18,517 nt of DNA from Candidatus Odinarchaeia archaeon (GCA_029856525.1 JAHQXC010000021.1:1-18517); one strand, 5' to 3'. Numbered from the stretch's first letter, positions 1,018 to 9,725 are shown. Translations and numbers: made by a program. The notes: a model not told the origin generated them from the letters alone.

Positions 1018-2079
1018 ATGCTAAAAAGTTTATACAGAAAAATATCATTCAGTAAGCTGATACCTTTAAACAAAAATCTCTTAGACGAATCTACCGCAAG
1101 TATACTTGAAGCAGGCTTTAAAAAGATAAGCCCTCCATCATATAATAAGATAGCTGTGTTCACATCCGAAAGCGAGCTCTCTGAAGCAACTGATATAGTC
1201 GTGTTGAATCTTAATATTTACAGCATATTTTCAAAAGATTATACTTTAGATGAATACTCAATTAAAATTTTATCAAGCCTTTTCAGAATATTAGCTAAAG
1301 AAGATAGGGAGGTCTTGAAGCCAATAGCTTTCATCATCTGCACTAACCCGTTTACTTTAACCGAATATTTTGAAAGAGAAAAGATCAGGTTAGACAGGAA
1401 TACGCGTGTCTTACATATAGCACCTACAAGCCTTTATTTTAGCCTTTATCAAAAAAATATAACTTACCTCATATTAGAGTATAATAGCCGATTCGTTAAC
1501 AAGCATGCCTATGATAAAATATTCAGAGAGATAGTTAACACTAATATTCTACTAAACAAATCTAATAATTACCTTACCGACTACGTTATTAAAGAAGGCT
1601 TCTACGATGTGTTCACTATAGGGGGTCCTCTGCTGAAAGCTTATACACTAAAAGAAGGCGACGATAGTTTTAAAACTCCGATTTTAGTCTCTCTGGAAAC
1701 CCCGCCGTTTATAGACTCTCAACAGATAATAAGAGATTTACGGGAATCACTTAATAAAATAGATGTGACTGTAAAAGATTTTTTAGAATTTAGCAGCGTT
1801 CACATTAAACCCTTTAACTCACTTCACATAATTTTAGAGAAGGCTTACACAGAGATCATAGGAGAGCAACCGTATATTGATTGGTTTACAATACCCTCCA
1901 CGGTCGAAGTTTTTAATAAGTTTTTTAAAACTGTAAACCAGCTTATATTCGGCCCGGGTGTGTTAACTAAACCAGACGGAGGGGTGTTCAGACAGCAATT
2001 ATCAATTTTTCTTAAAATATTCAATAATTTCTTAAAAATTAAAGGTGGTGGTTTAAATGAAGGAGAACAGGGTTATTAG
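1018..2079 (+). CDS. M20/ArgE-DapE-fold protein, apparently lacking metal ligands (putative pseudo-peptidase)
   Basis: 353 aa ORF. Segments echo M20 landmarks: VVLNLNIYSI (for LLNGHxDxV), HIAPTSL..YQKN (for EPT...KG), LEKAYTEIIGEQP and IFGPG, then a C-terminal helix. Recognised by eye only. Confidence 0.55.
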   Translation: MLKSLYRKISFSKLIPLNKNLLDESTASILEAGFKKISPPSYNKIAVFTSESELSEATDIVVLNLNIYSIFSKDYTLDEYSIKILSSLFRILAKEDREVLKPIAFIICTNPFTLTEYFEREKIRLDRNTRVLHIAPTSLYFSLYQKNITYLILEYNSRFVNKHAYDKIFREIVNTNILLNKSNNYLTDYVIKEGFYDVFTIGGPLLKAYTLKEGDDSFKTPILVSLETPPFIDSQQIIRDLRESLNKIDVTVKDFLEFSSVHIKPFNSLHIILEKAYTEIIGEQPYIDWFTIPSTVEVFNKFFKTVNQLIFGPGVLTKPDGGVFRQQLSIFLKIFNNFLKIKGGGLNEGEQGY

Positions 2080-2629
2080 CAATCCTGCTTTCAAAATAGT
2101 TTTAACCGCTTTAAACATGGGCTTATACGCGGCAGTCGGTTTACTCACATATTTCGGGATCACGGTTGGTGGAATAAAATTCTGGCCGGCTGTGATCGTG
2201 CCTGCAACGTTCAGTGTATTATTTGGGCCTTTTATAGGAGGAGTGGGCGCTGCAGGGGGTATATTCATCGCCGATCTTTTAACACACGGGGATGCGTTGC
2301 TCAGTTTAAGTGTAGGTGTCACCGCTAATTTCACAGCCTTCTTTATTCTAGGCTGGCTAACCTATAACAAGTACACTTTAAAAAGATACCTGGTGTCCGC
2401 AACAGGGAGCCTTCTTATTGGAAGCGGAATAATCGGATTCGGCTTATTTTTATGGACTCAGATCTTCACGCTTCCAGGGCAGCCCTTCGCTCCATGGACT
2501 TGGATAGCCGCTTTAACATATTTCGGCTGGACTTTTCTCAGTGAAATCCCCTTCCTTTTGTTAGTAGTACCCCCTATAATAAAGACTGTGAAACATTCTC
2601 TACCAGGTATTTTCTCATCTGAAGTGTGA
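2057..2629 (+). CDS. ECF transporter S component (QueT-like) membrane protein
   Basis: 190 aa with about 5-6 hydrophobic helices. LFGPFIGGVGAAGGIFIADLL matches the S-component pattern (FGP.xG.xxxxG.xIxD). SD-like AAGGTGGTGG precedes the ATG. Substrate unknown. Confidence 0.75.
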   Translation: MKENRVISNPAFKIVLTALNMGLYAAVGLLTYFGITVGGIKFWPAVIVPATFSVLFGPFIGGVGAAGGIFIADLLTHGDALLSLSVGVTANFTAFFILGWLTYNKYTLKRYLVSATGSLLIGSGIIGFGLFLWTQIFTLPGQPFAPWTWIAALTYFGWTFLSEIPFLLLVVPPIIKTVKHSLPGIFSSEV

Positions 2630-3396
2630 GGGAAGGGTTAACAGTGTTTAAGGTAACTTTAACCAATCCTTTAAAAATAGGGTTACTCGAATTTAAACCA
2701 AATTTCGACGGTACAGGAATAACAGTTAACGGCATCCCGGTTAAACCTTCATATATCATTCATAGCCGTGATAGAATAGATATACGGGAAGGTGAGCGCA
2801 TAGTCTACTTAATAGAGCATCATATAGCAGCTTTAACTTTAACCGGCATAACAGACGCGCATATAATCTCGCATCGAAGTGACTGGAATTTCTATAGGCC
2901 TGAGGATCGTGCAGCGTATTCGACTAACGCGGAGCCTTCTATGGTTCTCGGCGATCCTAACGGAGTTATCGGCGCTGAACTAGTGGAATCCCTTTTAAAA
3001 GCGCCGAAAACCACCATTAGAAAACTACACGAGTACACTAAGCCTGGAAAACCTGTAGAAGTGGAGCTTGAAGAAAGCGGGGTTATCCGCGTTAAACCAT
3101 TAGAAGAAGATTACATCGCTATTATAAAATTATTTTTCAAAGGCTTTAAAATTAAAACAATTTTTAAAACCACGCCGCCGAATATAAGTAAACCGTTGCT
3201 TCACAAGATTTCTAATTCTATAACGCCGTTTTTATCTGACAGTGAAAATACAGTCTACCATGTTCTAGGCGATTTAATAGGTGATTTAATAGGGTTAGGC
3301 GGAATTATAGGCGTTGAAATTCAGGCCTTCTTGAAGAAGTCATATCACGCGCTAACTTTTAAACTAATTCAAAAAATTCTGTCAACTTTATCTTAA
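2626..3396 (+). CDS. LpxC-like zinc-dependent deacetylase/amidohydrolase (divergent)
   Basis: GTG start overlaps the upstream TGA (GTGA). IEHHIAALTLTGI resembles LpxC VEHLxAALxGLGI, YHVLGDLIGDL resembles RHKxLDxIGDL, and SYHALTFKLI resembles SGHALNNKLL. Confidence 0.7.
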   Translation: MREGLTVFKVTLTNPLKIGLLEFKPNFDGTGITVNGIPVKPSYIIHSRDRIDIREGERIVYLIEHHIAALTLTGITDAHIISHRSDWNFYRPEDRAAYSTNAEPSMVLGDPNGVIGAELVESLLKAPKTTIRKLHEYTKPGKPVEVELEESGVIRVKPLEEDYIAIIKLFFKGFKIKTIFKTTPPNISKPLLHKISNSITPFLSDSENTVYHVLGDLIGDLIGLGGIIGVEIQAFLKKSYHALTFKLIQKILSTLS

Positions 3397-3473
3397 CTAT
3401 ACAAGAGGAACTTATCGGTAGACTTGAGGTTTGAGTGAAGTTAATCTTAAATATCATAGAATAATATTTAGAA

Positions 3474-3563
3474 TCCGCTGCATGGTTGAATGTTCAGTCC
3501 AGTATTTCACGTTGACTTCAAGCAAAAGCTATTCCCGCTTACAGTTCAACGCGAATCAACGGA
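3474..3563 (-). ncRNA. Candidate structured non-coding RNA (unassigned)
   Basis: Intergenic. On the minus strand the ends pair (UCCGUUG/CAGCGGA, one G-U), followed by an inner stem GUUGAA(C)UGU/ACAUUCAAC. A TATA-like TTTAAATA lies about 20-25 nt upstream on the minus strand. No family recognised. Confidence 0.3.
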
Positions 3564-3590
3564 GCTGGCTTAAACCAGCTTATATTTAAA
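3563..3590. promoter_or_regulatory. Perfect inverted repeat AGCTGG-N6-CCAGCT abutting a TATA-like element (TATATTTAAA)
   Basis: Palindrome at 3563-3580 and AT box at 3581-3590, upstream of the Lrp-domain/pantoate kinase unit. Confidence 0.35.
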
Positions 3591-3652
3591 ATAGTAAGTT
3601 TTTTTAAGCAGTAGAATAGATTAACGTTTTAATGTTTAAAGGAGAAGAAAAC

Positions 3653-3883
3653 ATGGCGGTGAGATTAGCTTTCATCTTAATAAGAGCTCAAGGCGGCTTA
3701 GAATCTGAAATACTGGATCAACTTAAAACGTTTAAGCAAATAACTCAAAGCTATATGATATACGGGGAATGGGATATAATCGCAATAGCCGAATACGAGA
3801 AACTCCCAGAGCTTAATACTTTAGTTCTGCAAATTAGAGGTATTCCAGGAGTTCAACAAACGTCAACTTTAGTGGTGTCGTAG
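3653..3883 (+). CDS. Stand-alone Lrp/AsnC ligand-binding (RAM) domain protein, no HTH
   Basis: 76 aa from the ATG at 3653, which follows SD-like AAGGAG (ORF track starts at 3632). AFILI...YMIYGEWDIIAIAE...IRGIPGVQQTSTLVV is the Lrp/AsnC C-terminal pattern. Confidence 0.85.
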   Translation: MAVRLAFILIRAQGGLESEILDQLKTFKQITQSYMIYGEWDIIAIAEYEKLPELNTLVLQIRGIPGVQQTSTLVVS

Positions 3884-3889
3884 ATTAAG

Positions 3890-4846
3890 ATGAACACTGA
3901 CCTGAAAAATAATATTAGAGTATTTGTACCTGGGAGAATCTCCGGGTTCTTTAAAATCCTATATACACGGAAGGATTCTAAAATTAGCTTTTACGGTTCT
4001 CTAGGAGCCGGGCCTAATCTGGAGGTAGGCGGATGGACCTCTATTAAAATATTAGATGATACGCGTAAAAAAATAAGCGTATTCATTAACGGTAGACTTG
4101 ACGAAAACGCGGCGACGAGTTTAAACGTGGTGAAGCTTCTATTACCAGCCGGATTCGAAAAATCCATAGAAGTATATCATGATATTGATGTACCTGTCGG
4201 CTGCGGCTATGGTGCGAGCGGTATAGGCGCTTTAGGATTAGCTGCGGTGTTAAACATTGTTTTAGACTTGAAGCTAACCTATAACCGTGTTGGTGAGATC
4301 GCTCATAACGCGGAAATAATGGCTAGAACAGGACTGGGGACTGTTGGACCTCAGCTGTTAGGCGGATTCACTATTACTAGAAGAGGGGGGCCTCCCGGTA
4401 AAAATATAATCGATAAAATTTTTCTTCCAGAAGATTATACTATTATATCCGCTTCTTTCGGGCCTATAAGCACGAAGAGTATTCTAAGCAGAGAAGATAT
4501 TTTCGACGATATTAATCTATACGGCGGGAAGTGTTTGAGGAAACTATTGAAATCTCCTTCAATAATCAATTTTCTTAGGCTTTCAAGAGACTTCGCTGAG
4601 CGATTAGATTTTATCACTCCCAGAGTCTCCGAGGTGTTAGCGAAACTAGATGAGATAAACGTTAATTCAAGTATGTGTATGATAGGTGAAACTGTTTTCA
4701 CAATTGTAGAGAAAAATTTAGAATCACAGGTTGTTAATGTTTTAGAGAATTTTTTTGAAAGAAAAAATATTATTTTAACATCAGTTAATAACACTGGTTT
4801 ACGTGTTCATTACGGTGGTAGAGATGATAAAAGAATTTCAAGGTAA
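3890..4846 (+). CDS. Pantoate kinase (archaeal GHMP kinase family)
   Basis: FVPGRISGFF N-terminus, GSLGAG, GHMP ATP motif PVGCGYGASG, AHNAEI..RTGLGTV and SMCMIGETVF. Located near coaBC. Confidence 0.85.
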   Translation: MNTDLKNNIRVFVPGRISGFFKILYTRKDSKISFYGSLGAGPNLEVGGWTSIKILDDTRKKISVFINGRLDENAATSLNVVKLLLPAGFEKSIEVYHDIDVPVGCGYGASGIGALGLAAVLNIVLDLKLTYNRVGEIAHNAEIMARTGLGTVGPQLLGGFTITRRGGPPGKNIIDKIFLPEDYTIISASFGPISTKSILSREDIFDDINLYGGKCLRKLLKSPSIINFLRLSRDFAERLDFITPRVSEVLAKLDEINVNSSMCMIGETVFTIVEKNLESQVVNVLENFFERKNIILTSVNNTGLRVHYGGRDDKRISR

Positions 4847-5333
4847 AGCTCCTAGAATAGCTGAAAAAACTTTTATCTCGGAGAGCGCGCTAATAGTGGG
4901 GGCTGTAACGATAGGAGAATATTCTAGTATCTGGCCTAATGCTGTTCTAAGAGGGGATGAAGGGGAAATCACAATAGGATGTTACTCAAATATTCAGGAT
5001 AACGCTGTAGTTCACTCGGACATGAACGGCCGAGTTGAAATCGGCGACTACGTGACTGTAGGGCACGGCGCGATCATACACGGTTGTAAAATTAAAAACT
5101 ATGTGATAGTGGGCATGGGAGCGGTGGTATTAAACAACGCGGTGATAGGGGAGAACTGTATTATTGGCGCTGGAGCTGTAGTTCTCGAGAACACTGTCAT
5201 CCCTGATAATAGTCTAGTGGTAGGCGTTCCTGCTGTAGTTAAAAGTGTTGTATCAGGGGAGAAATCAGCTGTTATTAAAGATAATGCATTATTATACTGG
5301 AGGCTAGCTGAAGAATACTTATCTGAAAAATAA
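4824..5333 (+). CDS. Gamma-class carbonic anhydrase family protein (CamH/YrdA-like, hexapeptide repeats)
   Basis: LRGD, NIQDNAVVH and VTVGHGAIIHGC supply the three Zn histidines. ATG at 4824 preferred over GTG at 4803; overlaps the pantoate kinase 3' end. Confidence 0.9.
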   Translation: MIKEFQGKAPRIAEKTFISESALIVGAVTIGEYSSIWPNAVLRGDEGEITIGCYSNIQDNAVVHSDMNGRVEIGDYVTVGHGAIIHGCKIKNYVIVGMGAVVLNNAVIGENCIIGAGAVVLENTVIPDNSLVVGVPAVVKSVVSGEKSAVIKDNALLYWRLAEEYLSEK

Positions 5334-5437
5334 TCTATATATTCTAAATATTTTATATGTAAAACTATTTAGCTATATATCTTATAAACAAAAAGTATAT
5401 AGACACTCAGTTATCCCTATATTTAAAGGTGACATAG

Positions 5438-6709
5438 TTGCTTTCAACCAGTCATATATCGAAAGATATTATCGGAAGTAAAAGCACTATTTTGAAGAAT
5501 AAGAAAATAGCGCTTTGCATCACTGGAAGCGTAGCTGCGATCCAATGTCCTATACTAGCAAGAGAGTTAATGAGAAATGGTGCAGAGGTTTTCGCGGTAA
5601 TGACACCTAGTGCCTTAAACATTATCAGCGCGGATTTAATGCAGTGGGCTACGGGTAATAGGGTAGTGACTAAACTGAGCGGTTTACTTGAACACGTAGA
5701 ATTAGCTGGAACACATATAGGTCACGTTGATCTGGTTTTAATAGCCCCCTGCACCGCTAACACGATAAGTAAAATCGCATGCGGAATAGATGATACAACT
5801 GTAACTACAGTTGTTAGCACAGCTTTCGGAGCCGGGATACCGATAGCTATAGTCCCGGCTATGCATGAAAGCATGTATAATCATCCTATTGTGAAGGAGA
5901 ATATTGAAAAGCTTAAAAAACTCGGTGTAATCTTCATCAGCCCTAGATTAGAGGAAGGTAAGGCTAAAATCGCTACTATTGAAAGTATAGTTGCGAGAAC
6001 AATTAACATTTTAACTAAGCGAAACGACTACGAGGGTATTAGGGTATTAGTAACCGCAGGTGGAACTAGAGAATACATAGATCCAATCCGGTTTATAGGA
6101 AACGCGAGCTCAGGTCGCACAGGCGTTGAAATAGCGTTAGAAGCTGAGGCTAGAGGAGCCGATGTAACATTAATCTACGGGGTTGGGACCGTGGAGGCTC
6201 CTGAACATATTAAAACTATAAGAGTTGAGACAGGAGAGGAGATGCTTCAAGCGATATTAAATGAGATCACAAAAAATAAGTATGACATTATAATTCACCC
6301 TGCCGCTGTATCAGATTACGGTCCTATTAACACTGAAAAATTTAAGATACCTACAGGTAAAACCGAGCTCTCAGTTCCGTTGAAACCTTTACCTAAAATA
6401 ATTAACGAGATAAGAAAAGTAGATCAAAAAGTGTTTTTAGTCGGTTTTAAAGCTGAAACAGGTTTAAGTGAAGAGGAGCTTATAAGAAGAGCATACAATA
6501 AGCTTAGGGAATCTGACTTAGATTTAATAGCGGCGAACGATGTTTCAAAAGAGGGGAGAGGCTTCAAGTCTTTAACCAATGAGTTATATGTTGTCGACCG
6601 CGAGATGAAGGTTCATCACATTCCCTTAAGCCATAAAAGAGAGGTTGCAGCTAAACTTATGGATATAATTTTAGACTATTTTAAAAGAAGAAAGGAGAGC
6701 GACTGGTAG
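5438..6709 (+). CDS. coaBC: Bifunctional phosphopantothenoylcysteine decarboxylase / phosphopantothenate-cysteine ligase
   Basis: ITGSVAA, APCTANTISKIACG, PAMHESMY, TAGGTREYIDPIRFIGNASSG, AAVSDY, VGFKAET and ANDVS. TTG start follows SD AAGGTGA. Confidence 0.95.
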   Translation: MLSTSHISKDIIGSKSTILKNKKIALCITGSVAAIQCPILARELMRNGAEVFAVMTPSALNIISADLMQWATGNRVVTKLSGLLEHVELAGTHIGHVDLVLIAPCTANTISKIACGIDDTTVTTVVSTAFGAGIPIAIVPAMHESMYNHPIVKENIEKLKKLGVIFISPRLEEGKAKIATIESIVARTINILTKRNDYEGIRVLVTAGGTREYIDPIRFIGNASSGRTGVEIALEAEARGADVTLIYGVGTVEAPEHIKTIRVETGEEMLQAILNEITKNKYDIIIHPAAVSDYGPINTEKFKIPTGKTELSVPLKPLPKIINEIRKVDQKVFLVGFKAETGLSEEELIRRAYNKLRESDLDLIAANDVSKEGRGFKSLTNELYVVDREMKVHHIPLSHKREVAAKLMDIILDYFKRRKESDW

Positions 6710-7690
6710 ACTGCAACAACCATAATATTTTTCTATTTTAATTTTTAATTCACCAGCGTAGTGTTTTATTAAAGTTGAAGGCGATGTGATTCTATTAAAC
6801 CCTGAACGCAACGCCGCTGCTTCCATCTCTTTTTTTAAAACCCCCCTAGGTCTCATGCAGCCTAAGCTTAACTCTGTTTCTGGAAATACAAGTCTAAGTA
6901 TTGATAGAAAACGCTGTATACTATCACTGGAAGGCGGCTTAATATTTTGAAGAGGAGTACCCTTTGTGGGCGTGAATATTATAATCACTATTAAACTTAG
7001 ATTATAAGGTTCTAGTATCTTTAACGCTTTAAACTCGTTTCCTATCACGCCTTTATTTAATCCAACGCATATATGAGGTACAATATTTTTTAACCCAGAG
7101 TTTTTTAAAGCTTTAAAAGTGTTCTGATAATCAATAGAGGATTTATTTAAGTGGTAAACGTTTCGAATAACTTCATCATCCCCGGTTACATCGAAGGAGA
7201 CAACGTCGACGCCTGTTTTTGAAAGCTCTCTTATCAGGCTATTTTTTATTAAACCAGTATGCACGTTTACAACAAGTTTAGTTTCCTGTTTTATTCTAGT
7301 TAAGTCGTCTATGAAATCTTCTAAAGGCACACTTCCCTCACTGTCACAGCCGCCGCTTACTAGAATCCCTAACGCTCCTTTATCCTCCATTTTTTTAGCG
7401 AATTCGAATAGTGACCTATATTCTGATATGCAATTCATATGCTCAAGATACTTAAGATTACAGTGATCGCATTTAAGCTCGCAGGAGTGGTTTGTTAAAG
7501 ATATTACAGGGAATTTTAAACCTGGGTAGAATAGTTTAACCGTGTTTTCAAAATTCTTCTTAAAATTTTTTACCGCTGTTTCACTTAAAAGCTCATTTGA
7601 CACTTCACCTTGGCGAAAGATCTTCTCTGCTTCTGATACGCTGAGCGGTTTAACTAGTTCATCCGGGTTATAAATCGTCTCCAACTTCAT
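6671..7690 (-). CDS. lipS1: Radical SAM lipoyl synthase subunit LipS1 (archaeal type)
   Basis: CELKCDHC (CX3CX2C) plus GCMR and a C-terminal CC (YGCCS), the motifs described for the Thermococcus TK2109-type LipS1. Adjacent to lipoate ligase genes. Confidence 0.8.
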   Translation of the reverse strand: MKLETIYNPDELVKPLSVSEAEKIFRQGEVSNELLSETAVKNFKKNFENTVKLFYPGLKFPVISLTNHSCELKCDHCNLKYLEHMNCISEYRSLFEFAKKMEDKGALGILVSGGCDSEGSVPLEDFIDDLTRIKQETKLVVNVHTGLIKNSLIRELSKTGVDVVSFDVTGDDEVIRNVYHLNKSSIDYQNTFKALKNSGLKNIVPHICVGLNKGVIGNEFKALKILEPYNLSLIVIIIFTPTKGTPLQNIKPPSSDSIQRFLSILRLVFPETELSLGCMRPRGVLKKEMEAAALRSGFNRITSPSTLIKHYAGELKIKIEKYYGCCSLPVALLSSFKIV

Positions 7691-7971
7691 TTATAAGCCT
7701 CTAAACAGCTAAGCGTGACTTTAACAAAGTCTTCAGGCGAGGCGCCTATAAGTGTTATCTCCGGTTTTTTGAAAAATTCTTCTATTATATTCTTAATAAT
7801 CTCCGTTGAGGCGGCTGCGCCTGTTAGCGAATTTTCCAGTTTTTCAATATACTCTTCCGGGTGGAGGAAGAAGTCCCCTGTATATTTTATATTTTTTATA
7901 TAGCCTTCTTCAACATCTAATCTACATTTAACAAGCTTTCCGCCTTTAACTTTAAGTTCAGCTTTACTCAT
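7687..7971 (-). CDS. lplB: Lipoate-protein ligase small (C-terminal domain) subunit
   Basis: KVKGGKLVKC...IKYTGDFFLHPEEYIEKLENSL matches the LplA C-terminal domain family. ATG at 7971 follows SD GGTAGGAG (ORF track starts at 8019). Confidence 0.85.
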   Translation of the reverse strand: MSKAELKVKGGKLVKCRLDVEEGYIKNIKYTGDFFLHPEEYIEKLENSLTGAAASTEIIKNIIEEFFKKPEITLIGASPEDFVKVTLSCLEAYK

Positions 7972-7975
7972 TCTC

Positions 7976-8740
7976 CTACCTTCTGAAAACCCATTCTCTA
8001 TTACTGAACTGCTTTTCATCGTATTCTCTTGTAAGCTTCTCCTCTATAGGAGTTAAACCATTAAACGTGTAATTGAATTTTAGACTTTCTGAAAAACCTT
8101 TAATAAGCAGCTGGGATATTTTCGCGAAATCAGGTTTCACACCTGTTATACTAGTTATAGAGGTCACACGCTCCTCAACTGATTTTATAAGTTTATCTGA
8201 AATCTTCTCTTTTGACACTTTAAGGAAATTGAACATTTCTTTTATATTTAAATCTAATAATATGGTTCCATGCTGTAATATTACTCCTTTCCTTCTAGTC
8301 TGAGCGTTACCTGATATTTTCTTCCCTTCAACCGTTATATCATTCACGGGTTTAAATTCAGCTTTTAAGCCAAGCCAGTTTAAGGCTTTGATTATTCCAC
8401 CGCATATAAGCTCATAAGAGCTTATTATATCTTTAGGCATCCCCTCGTAGTCTTCAGGGATAATTACACTATAAGTTATCTCCCCTTCATATGAATGATA
8501 TACAGCCCCTCCGCCAGTTATTCTTCTAACTACATCCACCCCCATTTCTCTGCACGCTTCGATGTTAACCTCATCGTTTACGCTTTGAAAATAGCCTACG
8601 GAAACCGCTGACGGCTTCCATCTATATAATCTTAGTGTAGGGGGGCTTCTCCCAGCTGAAACTTCATCTAGTATAGCGCTGTCAACAGCCATATTAACAG
8701 AGGCCTTATTTACTGTAAGAGGTATCACTCTCCAAATCAT
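7976..8740 (-). CDS. lplA: Lipoate-protein ligase catalytic subunit
   Basis: NMAVDSAIL, LRLYRW, RRITGGGAVYH, NDI..GKKISGNAQ and LQHGTILLD. Confidence 0.92.
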   Translation of the reverse strand: MIWRVIPLTVNKASVNMAVDSAILDEVSAGRSPPTLRLYRWKPSAVSVGYFQSVNDEVNIEACREMGVDVVRRITGGGAVYHSYEGEITYSVIIPEDYEGMPKDIISSYELICGGIIKALNWLGLKAEFKPVNDITVEGKKISGNAQTRRKGVILQHGTILLDLNIKEMFNFLKVSKEKISDKLIKSVEERVTSITSITGVKPDFAKISQLLIKGFSESLKFNYTFNGLTPIEEKLTREYDEKQFSNREWVFRR

Positions 8741-9725
8741 TCAGTAATCCCCTTAACTCTCTTCTAATTTTTTGAATATCCTTCTTCACAAGCTCTATTG
8801 AAGGATAGTTGTAGATCGGCCCTGAAACTTTTTCATTGTAAAACGGTCTATTGCAACCATGGCATCCCGAGGTTAAGAAAGGTTCACCTGACTGGATTAT
8901 TCTATTAAATTTCTTCGCAGGTATTAATATTTTTTTTATCTGTTTATCTCCGTTAAATATAAAATAGCTTATATCAGCGTTTTCGTTGAAAATGATATGT
9001 CTGGCTAATTGAAGTCTTCTATAAGCTTCTATTAAAGGAGGTTTTGAATCTTCTAATTTCGTTCCTTTTAACGGAGTTAACGCGAATAAACCTACGTTAA
9101 CCCCTATCTCTCTCATTCTTATCATGAAGTCCACAGCCTCTCGCTCACTTTCACCTAAACCTATTATCAGATGTGTTGTCACATTGTATTCCCCGAATAT
9201 TTTCACAGCGTTTTCTAAACAGCTTAACTGTTTTTCAAAACTATACGGCCCGTTCACTTCTAATCCTTTAAACATGTTAAATAATCGTGGTGTCGCCGCA
9301 TCTATTGGGAAACAAATTTTTTCAACTCCTTCATCTGAAAGTGTCTTCATCTCACTTTCTTCTAAAGGTTTTATAGAAAGCGAAATAGGTAGCTTCGAAA
9401 TTTTCTTTAAATATCTTACTATTTTTAACACATCTAAAAACACGTTTTCATAATTTACGGCTTGTACACAGATTCTCTTCAAAGATTTGAAATCCATGTC
9501 ACTGTAGCCTTCAAATAATTTTTCTAACTCGAATTCAGGCCATGCTACGCGTGAAAGTTTTTCAATATTAGCTGAACTTGAACGCGCCTGGGTGCAAAAA
9601 GCACAGTTTGCTGTACACTTATTTTTATAGTATGTCATAAGATAGATGGTGGTGGGCTCTGCTGCTAGTCTCCCCTGTATTTTTTTAAGTTTTATAGCAC
9701 TGCCTAGTGAGACTCTCACCTTCAT
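8706..9725 (-). CDS. lipS2: Radical SAM lipoyl synthase subunit LipS2 (archaeal type)
   Basis: CTANCAFC (CX3CX2C), LSRVAWP and C-terminal TSGCHGCNRP, resembling the TXGCPXC(N/D)RP motif of TK2248-type LipS2. Overlaps the lplA start. Confidence 0.8.
   Translation of the reverse strand: MKVRVSLGSAIKLKKIQGRLAAEPTTIYLMTYYKNKCTANCAFCTQARSSSANIEKLSRVAWPEFELEKLFEGYSDMDFKSLKRICVQAVNYENVFLDVLKIVRYLKKISKLPISLSIKPLEESEMKTLSDEGVEKICFPIDAATPRLFNMFKGLEVNGPYSFEKQLSCLENAVKIFGEYNVTTHLIIGLGESEREAVDFMIRMREIGVNVGLFALTPLKGTKLEDSKPPLIEAYRRLQLARHIIFNENADISYFIFNGDKQIKKILIPAKKFNRIIQSGEPFLTSGCHGCNRPFYNEKVSGPIYNYPSIELVKKDIQKIRRELRGLLNDLESDTSYSK

Follow-up and report, generated by a model that had tools for sequence, protein, structure and literature searches.

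LpxC is the UDP-3-O-acyl-N-acetylglucosamine deacetylase, and to our knowledge archaea do not synthesise lipid A. Neither do we know of a gene assigned to pantothenase. The archaeal route to 4'-phosphopantothenate through pantoate kinase (PoK) and PPS has been described in Thermococcus kodakarensis (PMC6650551). The window analysed here is a whole stretch of 18,517 nucleotides from a Candidatus Odinarchaeia archaeon, an Odinarchaeum of the Asgard group (GCA_029856525.1, JAHQXC010000021.1:1-18517), in which an LpxC-like gene is found in one array with an M20-like gene, a gene for an ECF-type S component, and PoK and CoaBC. As judged from sequences and structural models, the M20-like and LpxC-like genes encode a hitherto undescribed pair of proteins, an enzyme and its partner, with a link to coenzyme A (CoA) synthesis; a keyword search of the literature found no description of it. 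To the reading that the array as a whole would be a CoA precursor salvage operon, made up of import by the S component, a heteromeric amidase, a PoK-type kinase and CoaBC, we give a probability of roughly 0.55.

Layout of the array and start sites of its genes

The features of the array are the following:

1018..2079, + strand: M20-like gene (M20-peptidase fold, predicted pseudoenzyme), 353 aa; predicted non-catalytic partner of the LpxC-like enzyme
2057..2629, + strand: S gene (ECF-type S component, membrane substrate-capture protein), 190 aa
2626-3396, + strand: LpxC-like ORF as first read, 256 aa, from an in-frame alternative GTG at 2626
2644..3396, + strand: LpxC-like gene (proposed short LpxC-fold Zn amidohydrolase), 250 aa with the conserved GTG as start
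3397..3595, no strand: window-specific insertion of 199 nt in the LpxC-like/RAM spacer, missing in three other Odinarchaeum genomes
3654..3883, + strand: RAM gene (stand-alone Lrp/AsnC ligand-binding domain), 76 aa; PF01037, E 1.3e-11
3890..4846, + strand: PoK, pantoate-kinase-type GHMP kinase; NF041122, E 4e-51, under the curated cut-off
4803..5333, + strand: LbH gene, left-handed beta-helix, gamma-carbonic-anhydrase/PaaY-like; Hexapep, E 1e-20; NF050158, E 5e-44
5438..6709, + strand: CoaBC, phosphopantothenoylcysteine synthetase/decarboxylase; TIGR00521, 389.5 bits against a cut-off of 219.7

The M20-like, S and LpxC-like ORFs of the earlier note on this DNA were recovered at the stated positions (1018-2079, 2057-2629 and 2626-3396), all on the + strand. 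The 23-nt overlap that the note described between the first two is present in the window, where AAAGGTGGTGG lies immediately 5' of the S-gene ATG at 2057, but it is due to a window-specific 1-nt indel: the window reads GGTGGTGG at a site that reads GGTGGTG in the three other Odinarchaeum genomes, so that the stop of the M20-like gene is lost and the overlap is created. In those genomes the M20-like TAA abuts the S-gene ATG (gap of 0 nt). The GTGA at 2626-2629 was also found in the sequence, but the conserved start of the LpxC-like gene is the GTG at 2644 and not that at 2626. MFKV, which corresponds to GTG 2644, is the N-terminus in all the LpxC-like homologues, and in the relatives an in-frame stop precludes a start upstream of it; this GTG is located 14 nt past the S-gene stop and 6 nt past GAGGGAAGGG. 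Whichever reading of starts and overlaps is taken, the tight coupling of the three genes holds. As for their having been placed just upstream of PoK and coaBC, the order is correct, but the RAM gene intervenes before PoK and the LbH gene before CoaBC. The LpxC-like gene is separated from the RAM gene by a spacer of 257 nt in the window vs 54 nt in the three other Odinarchaeum genomes. A partial copy of the 199-nt insertion (82 nt, 79% identity) is found on contig C14, and the insertion itself rendered no fold signal (z -1.0) and no match to Rfam or to tRNAs.

The array from a P-type ATPase gene to CoaBC is syntenic as a whole in three further Odinarchaeum genomes, and the same array is found in a deeper Odinarchaeia lineage, with proteins 44-74% identical; the RAM orthologues, of 76 aa, show 91-100% identity within Odinarchaeum and 64% in the deeper lineage. 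The trio of M20-like, S and LpxC-like genes, whose synteny the earlier note had proposed to check, is thus co-conserved in Odinarchaeia. The conserved unit is the M20-like/LpxC-like pair rather than the trio, the S gene being located between both genes only in Odinarchaeia. The order in the corresponding cluster of the sister family is PPS-PanB-PoK-LbH-CoaBC, with the LbH slot between PoK and CoaBC likewise filled and its PoK syntenic with that of Odinarchaeum; in Odinarchaeum the M20-like, S, LpxC-like and RAM genes precede the same PoK-LbH-CoaBC. By gene order, the Odinarchaeum trio has displaced PPS-PanB in situ, ahead of PoK-LbH-CoaBC.

The M20-like/LpxC-like pair and the S component

The model of the LpxC-like protein (pLDDT 93.4) rendered LpxC in all of its first 50 Foldseek PDB matches (best E 4.5e-13, TM 0.66-0.74). 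Residues E58, H59, H206, D210, D214 and H235, invariant in 33 divergent members (21-66% identity), align with VEH, HxxxDxxxD and GH of Aquifex aeolicus LpxC. On this sequence basis the complete set of Zn and catalytic residues is kept, in agreement with the previous reading of the protein as a Zn enzyme, and we propose that it is an active Zn amidohydrolase. It falls below both curated cut-offs (PF03331, 26.4 bits vs 27; TIGR00325, 19.6 vs 187). The insert II region comprises 44 profile positions in the family vs 72 residues in A. aeolicus LpxC, and the model has there a single helix, without the beta-alpha-beta insert. The family is nearly limited to Asgard archaea.

The M20-like protein of the window matched no Pfam and no NCBIfam model. 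Its structural model, of moderate quality (pLDDT 66), matched DapE, ArgE, carnosinase and LysK (E 7e-11 to 1e-8), and distant relatives pass the cut-offs of PF07687 (M20_dimer) and PF01546 (Peptidase_M20). None of the 19 invariant columns across eight family members is His, Asp or Glu, so that the family keeps no conserved metal ligand, as the "pseudo" label given to it earlier had implied; the segment that follows FGPG, with the last His ligand, is apparently missing (at an hhalign probability of only ~2%). The protein is predicted to be a catalytically dead partner of the LpxC-like enzyme. For the complex of both proteins, ipSAE was 0.89, 0.87 and 0.89 (best of three controls, 0.00), a mark attained by 58 of 80 solved complexes and by 2 of 110 mismatched pairs. 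Partner pLDDT was at least 90 in these runs, which had at least 84% of contacts in common. Family-invariant residues are enriched at the predicted interface (7/19, p 6e-4, and 8/34, p 6e-3), although the same alignments also underlie the complex prediction, so that this enrichment and the prediction are partly dependent. The two proteins are predicted to bind through their most conserved residues.

The S protein matched models of S components weakly (PF12822, 19.0 bits, cut-off 30.7; PF07155, 16.9, cut-off 26.7), and an Asgard relative that is 46% identical is over the PF07155 cut-off (29.4 vs 26.7). Both Pfam families are present in many of the 157 relatives, and the Atlas feature score of the S protein to ECF S clusters is 0.92, its ten best matches all being S components. 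An EcfA-EcfA'-EcfT module, in which two genes for ABC ATPases and a T gene of the CbiQ family overlap at their ends, is found elsewhere in the genome (G000:C104 6313-8749), and a separate CbiMNQO on contig C30. Among Asgards, the S family is present only in Odinarchaeum (4/4 genomes) and in family f16 (3/5), both without PPS and PanB, and the f16 gene abuts PoK. Relatives overlap or abut PoK homologues (L025, L055); outside the Asgard families just named they overlap a PoK homologue or face a Fumble-type (type II) pantothenate kinase gene (L023). The import of an amide-containing precursor, as had been suggested, is consistent with these kinase neighbours, but nothing points to the 7-deazaguanine (QueT-type) substrates that had been considered as well. 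Gene context argues that the S component likely imports a pantothenate-family compound. A further point in favour is that on a bacterial-looking contig the M20-like/LpxC-like pair comes after a symporter gene (best specific match PanF, 163 bits, under the cut-off).

The two genes of the pair are neighbours in five lineages or more (Odinarchaeia, Sifarchaeia, Atabeyarchaeia, another Promethearchaeota lineage and a bacterial-looking contig). The pair could be an N-deacylase of a general kind with no relation to CoA, whose substrate would be, e.g., an N-acetyl amino sugar or a derivative of an amino acid, in which case its proximity to CoA genes would be meaningless. The N-deacetylation of a GlcNAc derivative is indeed the only LpxC chemistry known to us; moreover, the Atabeyarchaeia pair lies among unrelated genes, 25 kb from a PoK-PPS-KPR-ADC cluster, and the distant member L060 has a defence-like gene neighbourhood. 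On the bacterial-looking contig the neighbourhood also includes genes for an RpiR-type regulator and for a protein resembling sugar isomerases, which could indicate an N-acetyl sugar substrate. However, the pair is at most 4 kb from PoK in four of the five archaeal lineages: two Odinarchaeia lineages have it in the same array as PoK-LbH-CoaBC; in Sifarchaeia, represented by one genome (80% complete), its overlap with PoK is 4 nt; and in another Promethearchaeota lineage it is near PPS, PoK, aspartate decarboxylase (ADC) and KPR, all within 9 kb, being located between PPS, 2 kb away, and PoK-ADC-KPR in locus L059, and 3 kb from PoK-ADC-KPR in locus L040. The linkage to CoA genes that was to be checked is therefore found outside this genome, in the latter two lineages. 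Since, in addition, an S component of a pantothenate-kinase-associated family is inserted between both genes and the trio takes the place of PPS-PanB, we consider a function unrelated to CoA unlikely.

Coenzyme A genes and the proposed salvage

As far as gene content tells, the genes that usually serve to make the vitamin B5 moiety of CoA have been lost in Odinarchaeum. PPS was not found in four Odinarchaeum genomes (G000-G003, one of them closed), in G000 not by phmmer even at E<=10; PanC was not found in the three genomes searched (G000, G001 and G002), nor were PanB, KPR and pantothenate kinases of types I, II and III in Odinarchaeum. CoaBC (in the window) and DPCK are present. The PoK scores 174 bits with NF041122 (cut-off 500) and matches T. 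kodakarensis pantoate kinase 6JBC with an E of 1.2e-36 over 268 residues; in an alignment of 12 PoK sequences no residue was found to track PPS status.

Folds, catalytic residues, gene order, phyletic patterns, the predicted complex, CoA linkage and the displacement of PPS-PanB together support the salvage reading. The S component would dock on the shared EcfAA'T module and bring in a pantothenate-family compound. The LpxC-like Zn amidohydrolase would act as a heteromer with the dead M20-like protein, which would probably contribute part of the substrate site, and would cut an amide of the imported or a recycled compound, the product then being phosphorylated by the PoK-type kinase and handed to CoaBC. 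In Odinarchaeum, such a salvage module would replace PPS and PanB ahead of PoK-LbH-CoaBC.

The substrates of transport, of amide cleavage and of the kinase are those that we infer for this scheme. In lineages with PPS, the simplest reaction would be that of a "pantothenase", from pantothenate to pantoate and beta-alanine, by which a PoK/PPS organism could use vitamin B5. For the window itself, the earlier suggestion that the LpxC-like enzyme releases pantoate for pantoate kinase is at odds with the gene content of Odinarchaeum, where PPS, PanC and every type of pantothenate kinase are missing: the reaction would be a dead end there because PPS, needed to rejoin beta-alanine, is absent, so that the cleavage product must retain beta-alanine. 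It is possible that in this PPS-less organism the distal amide is cut (e.g. pantetheine to pantothenate), or else that a PPS substitute of another kind is present. The distal-amide version would require a PoK-type kinase that accepts pantothenate, a putative activity, and this counts against it.

Alternatively, the heteromer could replace a biosynthetic step, either that of PPS (4-phosphopantoate and beta-alanine) or that of PanB (ketopantoate), with the S component importing pantoate. The trio stands in the exact place of the sister family's PPS-PanB; PPS, present in 213 of the 251 Asgard genomes sampled, is missing from Odinarchaeum and also from Sifarchaeia, and PanB, present in 192, was found in none of the eight pair-carrying genomes searched. 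Besides, the neighbours of the pair in L040 and L059 (PoK, ADC and KPR) are all the de novo enzymes but PanB. However, the invariant residues are of the hydrolase type, with a Zn-bound water, and neither protein has a nucleotide-binding domain, so that amide ligation would have to proceed without an energy source. Atabeyarchaeia also have PPS along with the pair, and in L059 the two are close together; families f16 and f17 are without PPS yet also without the pair, and a PanB substitute would still require KPR and PPS, both missing in Odinarchaeum. A biosynthetic role is, in our opinion, quite improbable. The poorest candidate, and a very improbable one, is the supply of beta-alanine from an N-acyl, N-carbamoyl or beta-alanyl compound (N-acetyl-beta-alanine, 3-ureidopropionate or a carnosine-type dipeptide), to which the match of the M20 fold to carnosinases and deacetylases, the M20 nature of yeast beta-alanine synthase and the proximity of the pair to PoK and an MfnA-type decarboxylase in L040 and L059 would point, but no metal site is left in the M20-like subunit, these two loci already encode a decarboxylase able to make beta-alanine, and in Odinarchaeum beta-alanine would be of no use for CoA because PPS and PanC are both absent.

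The salvage reading admits a bolder version, which we put forward tentatively and regard as doubtful. The heteromer might represent a new type of enzyme, a Zn amidase with a dead M20 specificity subunit, that opens vitamin B5-type compounds to PoK-pathway archaea, and the "pantoate kinase" of PPS-less Asgards might act as a pantothenate kinase; or, more radically, the heteromer might itself make the bond between pantoyl and beta-alanine without ATP. If true, the heteromer would be the missing link between the PoK pathway and the use of vitamin B5-type compounds, and the PoK of PPS-less Asgards a third, GHMP-type solution to the pantothenate kinase step.

Comparison with known systems

With the T. 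kodakarensis PoK/PPS route, Odinarchaeum shares a PoK homologue, CoaBC and DPCK; it differs in that PPS, PanB and KPR were not found and in that the trio occupies their place in the cluster. The proposed hydrolysis of one or other amide in the pantothenate/pantetheine skeleton would be analogous to the reactions of pantothenase (EC 3.5.1.22) and pantetheinase/vanin (EC 3.5.1.92); vanins are members of the nitrilase superfamily, and their likeness to the heteromer would be by function only, with no homology expected. Like the solitary vitamin S components of ECF transporters (e.g. PanT), the S protein is small and polytopic, a shared EcfAA'T module is encoded at another place in the genome, and its gene has a context of enzymes for the same vitamin, but it matches general models only, weakly, and no substrate-specific one; its family is archaeal and linked to PoK-type kinases, and its likely substrate is read from gene context.

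The M20-like protein has the catalytic-plus-dimerisation fold and the FGPG motif of M20 metallopeptidases and deacylases (DapE, ArgE, LysK, carnosinase; PF01546, PF07687), but neither the ligands of the di-metal site (2 His, Asp, Glu) nor the catalytic Glu are conserved, and it is predicted to bind the LpxC-like enzyme instead of acting alone. Finally, the LpxC-like protein resembles LpxC (EC 3.5.1.108; PF03331, TIGR00325) in its predicted two-domain beta-alpha-alpha-beta fold (TM about 0.7) and in the Glu-His, His-x3-Asp-x3-Asp, His set, which corresponds block for block to that of A. aeolicus LpxC. It differs from LpxC in sequence (~17% identity), in having ~28 residues fewer where insert II of LpxC forms the acyl tunnel for the 3-O-acyl chain, and in ~22 additional residues after the Glu-His helix (W-x-F-x-R-P-x-x-R-x-A-Y), a predicted docking surface for the M20-like protein; it occurs in archaea, and its gene is always paired with an M20-like one.

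The pair and its gene array

Homologues assign the window to the Asgard archaeon Odinarchaeum. Its plus strand carries, in order:

Upstream of 1018, +: end only of a P-type ATPase gene, first in the array
1018-2079, +: M20-like gene, 353 aa, no family match
2057-2629, +: S gene, 190-aa membrane protein with weak ECF S-component matches
2644 (or 2626) to 3396, +: LpxC-like gene, 250 (or 256) aa, sub-threshold LpxC match
3654-3883, +: RAM-domain (Lrp/AsnC ligand-binding) protein, 76 aa
3890-4846, +: PoK, pantoate-kinase-type GHMP kinase
4803-5333, +: LbH (left-handed beta-helix) protein
5438-6709, +: CoaBC

The entire array was syntenic in three other Odinarchaeum genomes and also in a deeper Odinarchaeia lineage (44-74% identity), so that the trio singled out in the earlier note is co-conserved in both. 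The overlaps described there are literally present in the window sequence, and the observation is upheld, two of its details being corrected. The 23-nt overlap is absent from the three other Odinarchaeum genomes, in which a TAA is followed directly by the ATG of the S gene; it results from one extra G (a 1-nt indel) at 2045-2052, which reads GGTGGTGG as against GGTGGTG in the relatives, costs the M20-like gene its TAA stop and extends it by 8 codons. The indel may be genuine, or it may have arisen by misassembly of a homopolymer-like run. In the LpxC-like gene, the conserved start is not 2626 but the GTG at 2644 (protein MFKV), 14 nt past the S-gene stop and preceded by the Shine-Dalgarno-like run GAGGGAAGGG; an in-frame stop bars the earlier start in the relatives. 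The LpxC-like/RAM spacer holds a 199-nt insertion (3397-3595), absent from the three other Odinarchaeum genomes, of which an 82-nt partial copy (79% identity) lies elsewhere in the same genome (G000:C14:6947-7027). It gave no structure signal and no RNA family match, and may be what is left of a small mobile repeat. Scanned for Rfam families and tRNAs, the window rendered no matches. On the minus strand, at 6671-9725, a lipoate cluster convergent with CoaBC, comprising a LipS1-type lipoyl synthase, an LplB small subunit and two more genes (probably LplA and LipS2), lies in synteny across all Odinarchaeum genomes.

The M20-like gene also adjoins the LpxC-like gene in Atabeyarchaeia (L012, L013, L015, L061), in Sifarchaeia (L014), in a further Promethearchaeota lineage (L040, L059) and, with the order reversed, on a bacterial-looking contig (L042, L043). 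The S gene sits inside the pair only in Odinarchaeia, and the pair itself is the conserved unit. Another locus, L058, has a putative adjacent pair and also a canonical M20 gene. Three overlapping genes lie at L058:60-2928: one for a 420-aa canonical M20 peptidase (PF01546, PF07687), one for a protein of 278 aa that matches no family and occupies the place of the 279-aa weak M20-like gene of L043, and the LpxC-like gene. Here the pair may be joined by an active M20 enzyme.

The AlphaFold model of the LpxC-like protein, built from nine sequences, has a pLDDT of 93 and matches LpxC structures only (E 4.5e-13, TM about 0.7). The only side chains invariant in 33 members (21-66% identity) are E58, H59, H206, D210, D214 and H235, plus one Gly. 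A PDB profile search aligned these residues with the VEH, HxxxDxxxD and GH blocks of A. aeolicus LpxC, on which basis the protein is predicted to be an active Zn hydrolase. The model of the M20-like protein is moderate (pLDDT 66) and matches DapE, ArgE, carnosinase and LysK, and its remote relatives exceed the M20_dimer or Peptidase_M20 cut-offs. No His, Asp or Glu was found among the 19 invariant columns of eight members, and the segment after FGPG, which would hold the last His ligand, seems to be missing in a low-probability hhalign alignment; comparison by hhalign of the family with a single canonical M20 sequence was uninformative except for the C-terminal block. Judging from these sequences, the M20-like protein is best read as a pseudoenzyme.

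Complex prediction for the two proteins gave ipSAE values of 0.89, 0.87 and 0.89, the best of three controls reaching 0.00; the ipSAE mark used is attained by 58 of 80 solved complexes and by 2 of 110 mismatched pairs. The partners had a pLDDT of 90 or more, and at least 84% of the contacts were common to the runs. The predicted interface comprises a family-specific segment of the LpxC-like protein (W81-F83-R85-P86-R89-Y92) and residues F199, G202, P229, P230, P265, F266 and W289 of the M20-like protein, and is enriched in invariant residues (p 6e-4 and 6e-3, values that are not fully independent, since the prediction used the same alignments). No comparable solved complex is known to us, and the prediction is therefore unlikely to reproduce one; the modelling supports binding of the two proteins.

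Displacement of CoA-precursor genes

Linkage of the pair to CoA genes, which the earlier note had pointed out in the window, is not limited to this genome. The LpxC-like gene of Sifarchaeia shares 4 nt with PoK; at L059 the pair lies between PPS (phosphopantothenate synthetase) and a PoK/MfnA-type decarboxylase/KPR cluster, all inside 9 kb, an arrangement repeated on the shorter contig of L040; and two Odinarchaeia lineages have the pair and PoK-LbH-CoaBC in one array. Only in the Atabeyarchaeia type does the pair stand apart from CoA genes, 25 kb from a PoK-PPS-x-KPR-ADC cluster (ADC, aspartate decarboxylase). Proximity to PoK is thus a repeated feature of the pair. The sister family in the same order (G005) has PPS-PanB-PoK-LbH-CoaBC, while the M20-like, S, LpxC-like and RAM genes precede the same PoK-LbH-CoaBC in Odinarchaeum: PPS-PanB has been replaced in place.

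PPS, PanB (the ketopantoate-forming enzyme), KPR and PanC were not found in the Odinarchaeum genomes searched (one closed, 98% complete), apart from one marginal 24-bit match for KPR, nor were pantothenate kinases of types I, II and III; CoaBC (in the window) and DPCK are present. A divergent hidden copy of PPS in the window's own genome was excluded, as phmmer searches with the relatives' PPS, PanB and KPR against all six-frame ORFs rendered nothing at E<=10. PPS was detected in 213, PanB in 192 and PoK in 235 of 251 Asgard genomes, and several Asgard families retain PoK without PPS, families f1, f10, f16, f17 and f22 among them. The published picture of archaeal CoA synthesis does not cover such Asgards (PMC6650551). 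The papers that were keyword-checked did not mention Asgards or Odinarchaeia, and a keyword literature search rendered no paper describing the pair or PPS-less Asgards.

No PoK residue was found to distinguish lineages lacking PPS from those that have it, and the Thr that takes the place of D143 of T. kodakarensis is general in Asgards. No signal emerged when the divergence of PoK between the sister family and Odinarchaeum was set against that of CoaBC and LbH, and the MfnA/ADC family search did not discriminate. In one Odinarchaeum genome PoK is broken into two frames, with an internal stop (L011, G003:C13:21738-22665), either as a pseudogene or through an assembly error.

Other genes were observed around these clusters. 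A FAH-family (fumarylacetoacetate-hydrolase) gene is conserved by the PoK-ADC-KPR cluster on two related contigs (L040:4508-5209, L059:8281-8961). On the bacterial-looking contig, a sodium/solute symporter (best specific match PanF, 163 bits, below cut-off) lies downstream of an RpiR-type regulator gene and is followed by an unknown gene of 202 aa, then by the LpxC-like gene and a short M20-like one (L042:4883-7753). An Atabeyarchaeia genome without PanB carries, between PPS and KPR of the PoK-PPS-x-KPR-ADC cluster, a 446-aa protein in which an OMPdecase/HUMPS (hexulose-phosphate-synthase-like) domain is fused to an RraA-like aldolase domain (L051:4844-6184; G027:C1, about 994.8-996.2 kb), a candidate for a PanB-independent route to ketopantoate by formaldehyde release and aldol addition.

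Substrate and proposed working

The S component has 157 relatives and resembles ECF S components by protein features; no match to solved structures was found. Its genome carries an EcfA-EcfA'-EcfT module and CbiMNQO. Among Asgards the family is confined to Odinarchaeum (4/4) and family f16 (3/5, including two 100%-complete genomes), and PPS and PanB were found in neither (0/5 in f16, two 100%-complete genomes included). An f16 S component, 46% identical to that of the window, abuts PoK with no gap (L055:6723-8264, G024:C196). Where PoK occurs without PPS, either pantothenate is accepted by the PoK-type kinase or something else stands in for PPS. The S gene overlaps a PoK homologue by 8 nt on another archaeal contig and faces a Fumble-type pantothenate kinase on a third. 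The family is tied to pantothenate/pantoate kinases, and this distribution and these neighbours point to a pantothenate-family substrate. A 7-deazaguanine (QueT-type) substrate, also considered in the earlier note, was rejected, no context supporting it.

Most likely, the S component would import a pantothenate-type compound, the heteromer of predicted hydrolase and dead M20-fold partner would cleave one of its amides, and the product would be phosphorylated by the PoK-type kinase and passed to CoaBC. The earlier salvage proposal, with the LpxC-like enzyme freeing pantoate for PoK as its example, is supported in part. In lineages with PPS the simplest reaction would be cleavage of pantothenate into pantoate and beta-alanine. 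This fails in Odinarchaeum, which lacks PPS, since no enzyme would take 4-phosphopantoate further; there, either a distal amide (of a pantetheine-type compound) would be cut, with pantothenate accepted by the PoK-type kinase, or PPS would have a substitute. The former option is favoured by the S-PoK modules of f16, a family without PPS; no sequence signature of a changed kinase substrate was found.

It could also be that the heteromer itself substitutes for PPS or PanB, which fits the displacement in place and the absence of PanB from all pair-carrying genomes; however, the residue set is that of a hydrolase, the pair has no nucleotide-binding domain, and it co-occurs with PPS. An N-deacylase unrelated to CoA would suit the contexts in Atabeyarchaeia and on the bacterial-looking contig, but the recurring linkage to PoK does not fit it. 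A hydrolase that frees beta-alanine would be pointless in Odinarchaeum, with neither PPS nor PanC.

To our knowledge, organisms of the PoK/PPS route have no means of using vitamin B5. Pantothenate hydrolysis by the pair, if true, would let those without pantothenate kinase do so, and the pair is a concrete candidate for this role. Pantothenase is an orphan activity, and the pair is possibly its gene. The proposed working makes a clear hole in Asgard CoA synthesis testable and indicates vitamins needed by an Odinarchaeum culture.

Comparison with LpxC and M20 enzymes

A motif-based locus search with a 9-sequence LpxC-like alignment and strict patterns rendered only 6 loci. Among 1.84 billion representative proteins, searched exhaustively with a profile, only 39 clusters matched at E<=1e-10, ordinary LpxCs surfacing only above about 1e-9. 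Named members belong to Odinarchaeia, Sifarchaeia, Atabeyarchaeia and other Promethearchaeota, with further records labelled Njordarchaeum and, in one case, Bathyarchaeota; the protein occurs in only three families of the 251 sampled Asgard genomes.

The M20-like partner does not appear to be a functional M20 peptidase. The LpxC-like protein shares fold and mechanism residues with LpxC; nevertheless, we would not place it in the curated LpxC family, because it scores under both curated cut-offs, has a reduced insert II and, being archaeal, lacks a lipid A context. The aligned blocks are separated by 44 positions in the LpxC-like family and by 72 in LpxC, in the region of insert II, which makes up the acyl tunnel, and about 22 additional residues follow the Glu-His helix in the LpxC-like family. 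One reaction is known for the LpxC fold, a step of lipid A synthesis in bacteria; the pair would give it a predicted second job, in an archaeal enzyme with an obligatory pseudoenzyme partner.
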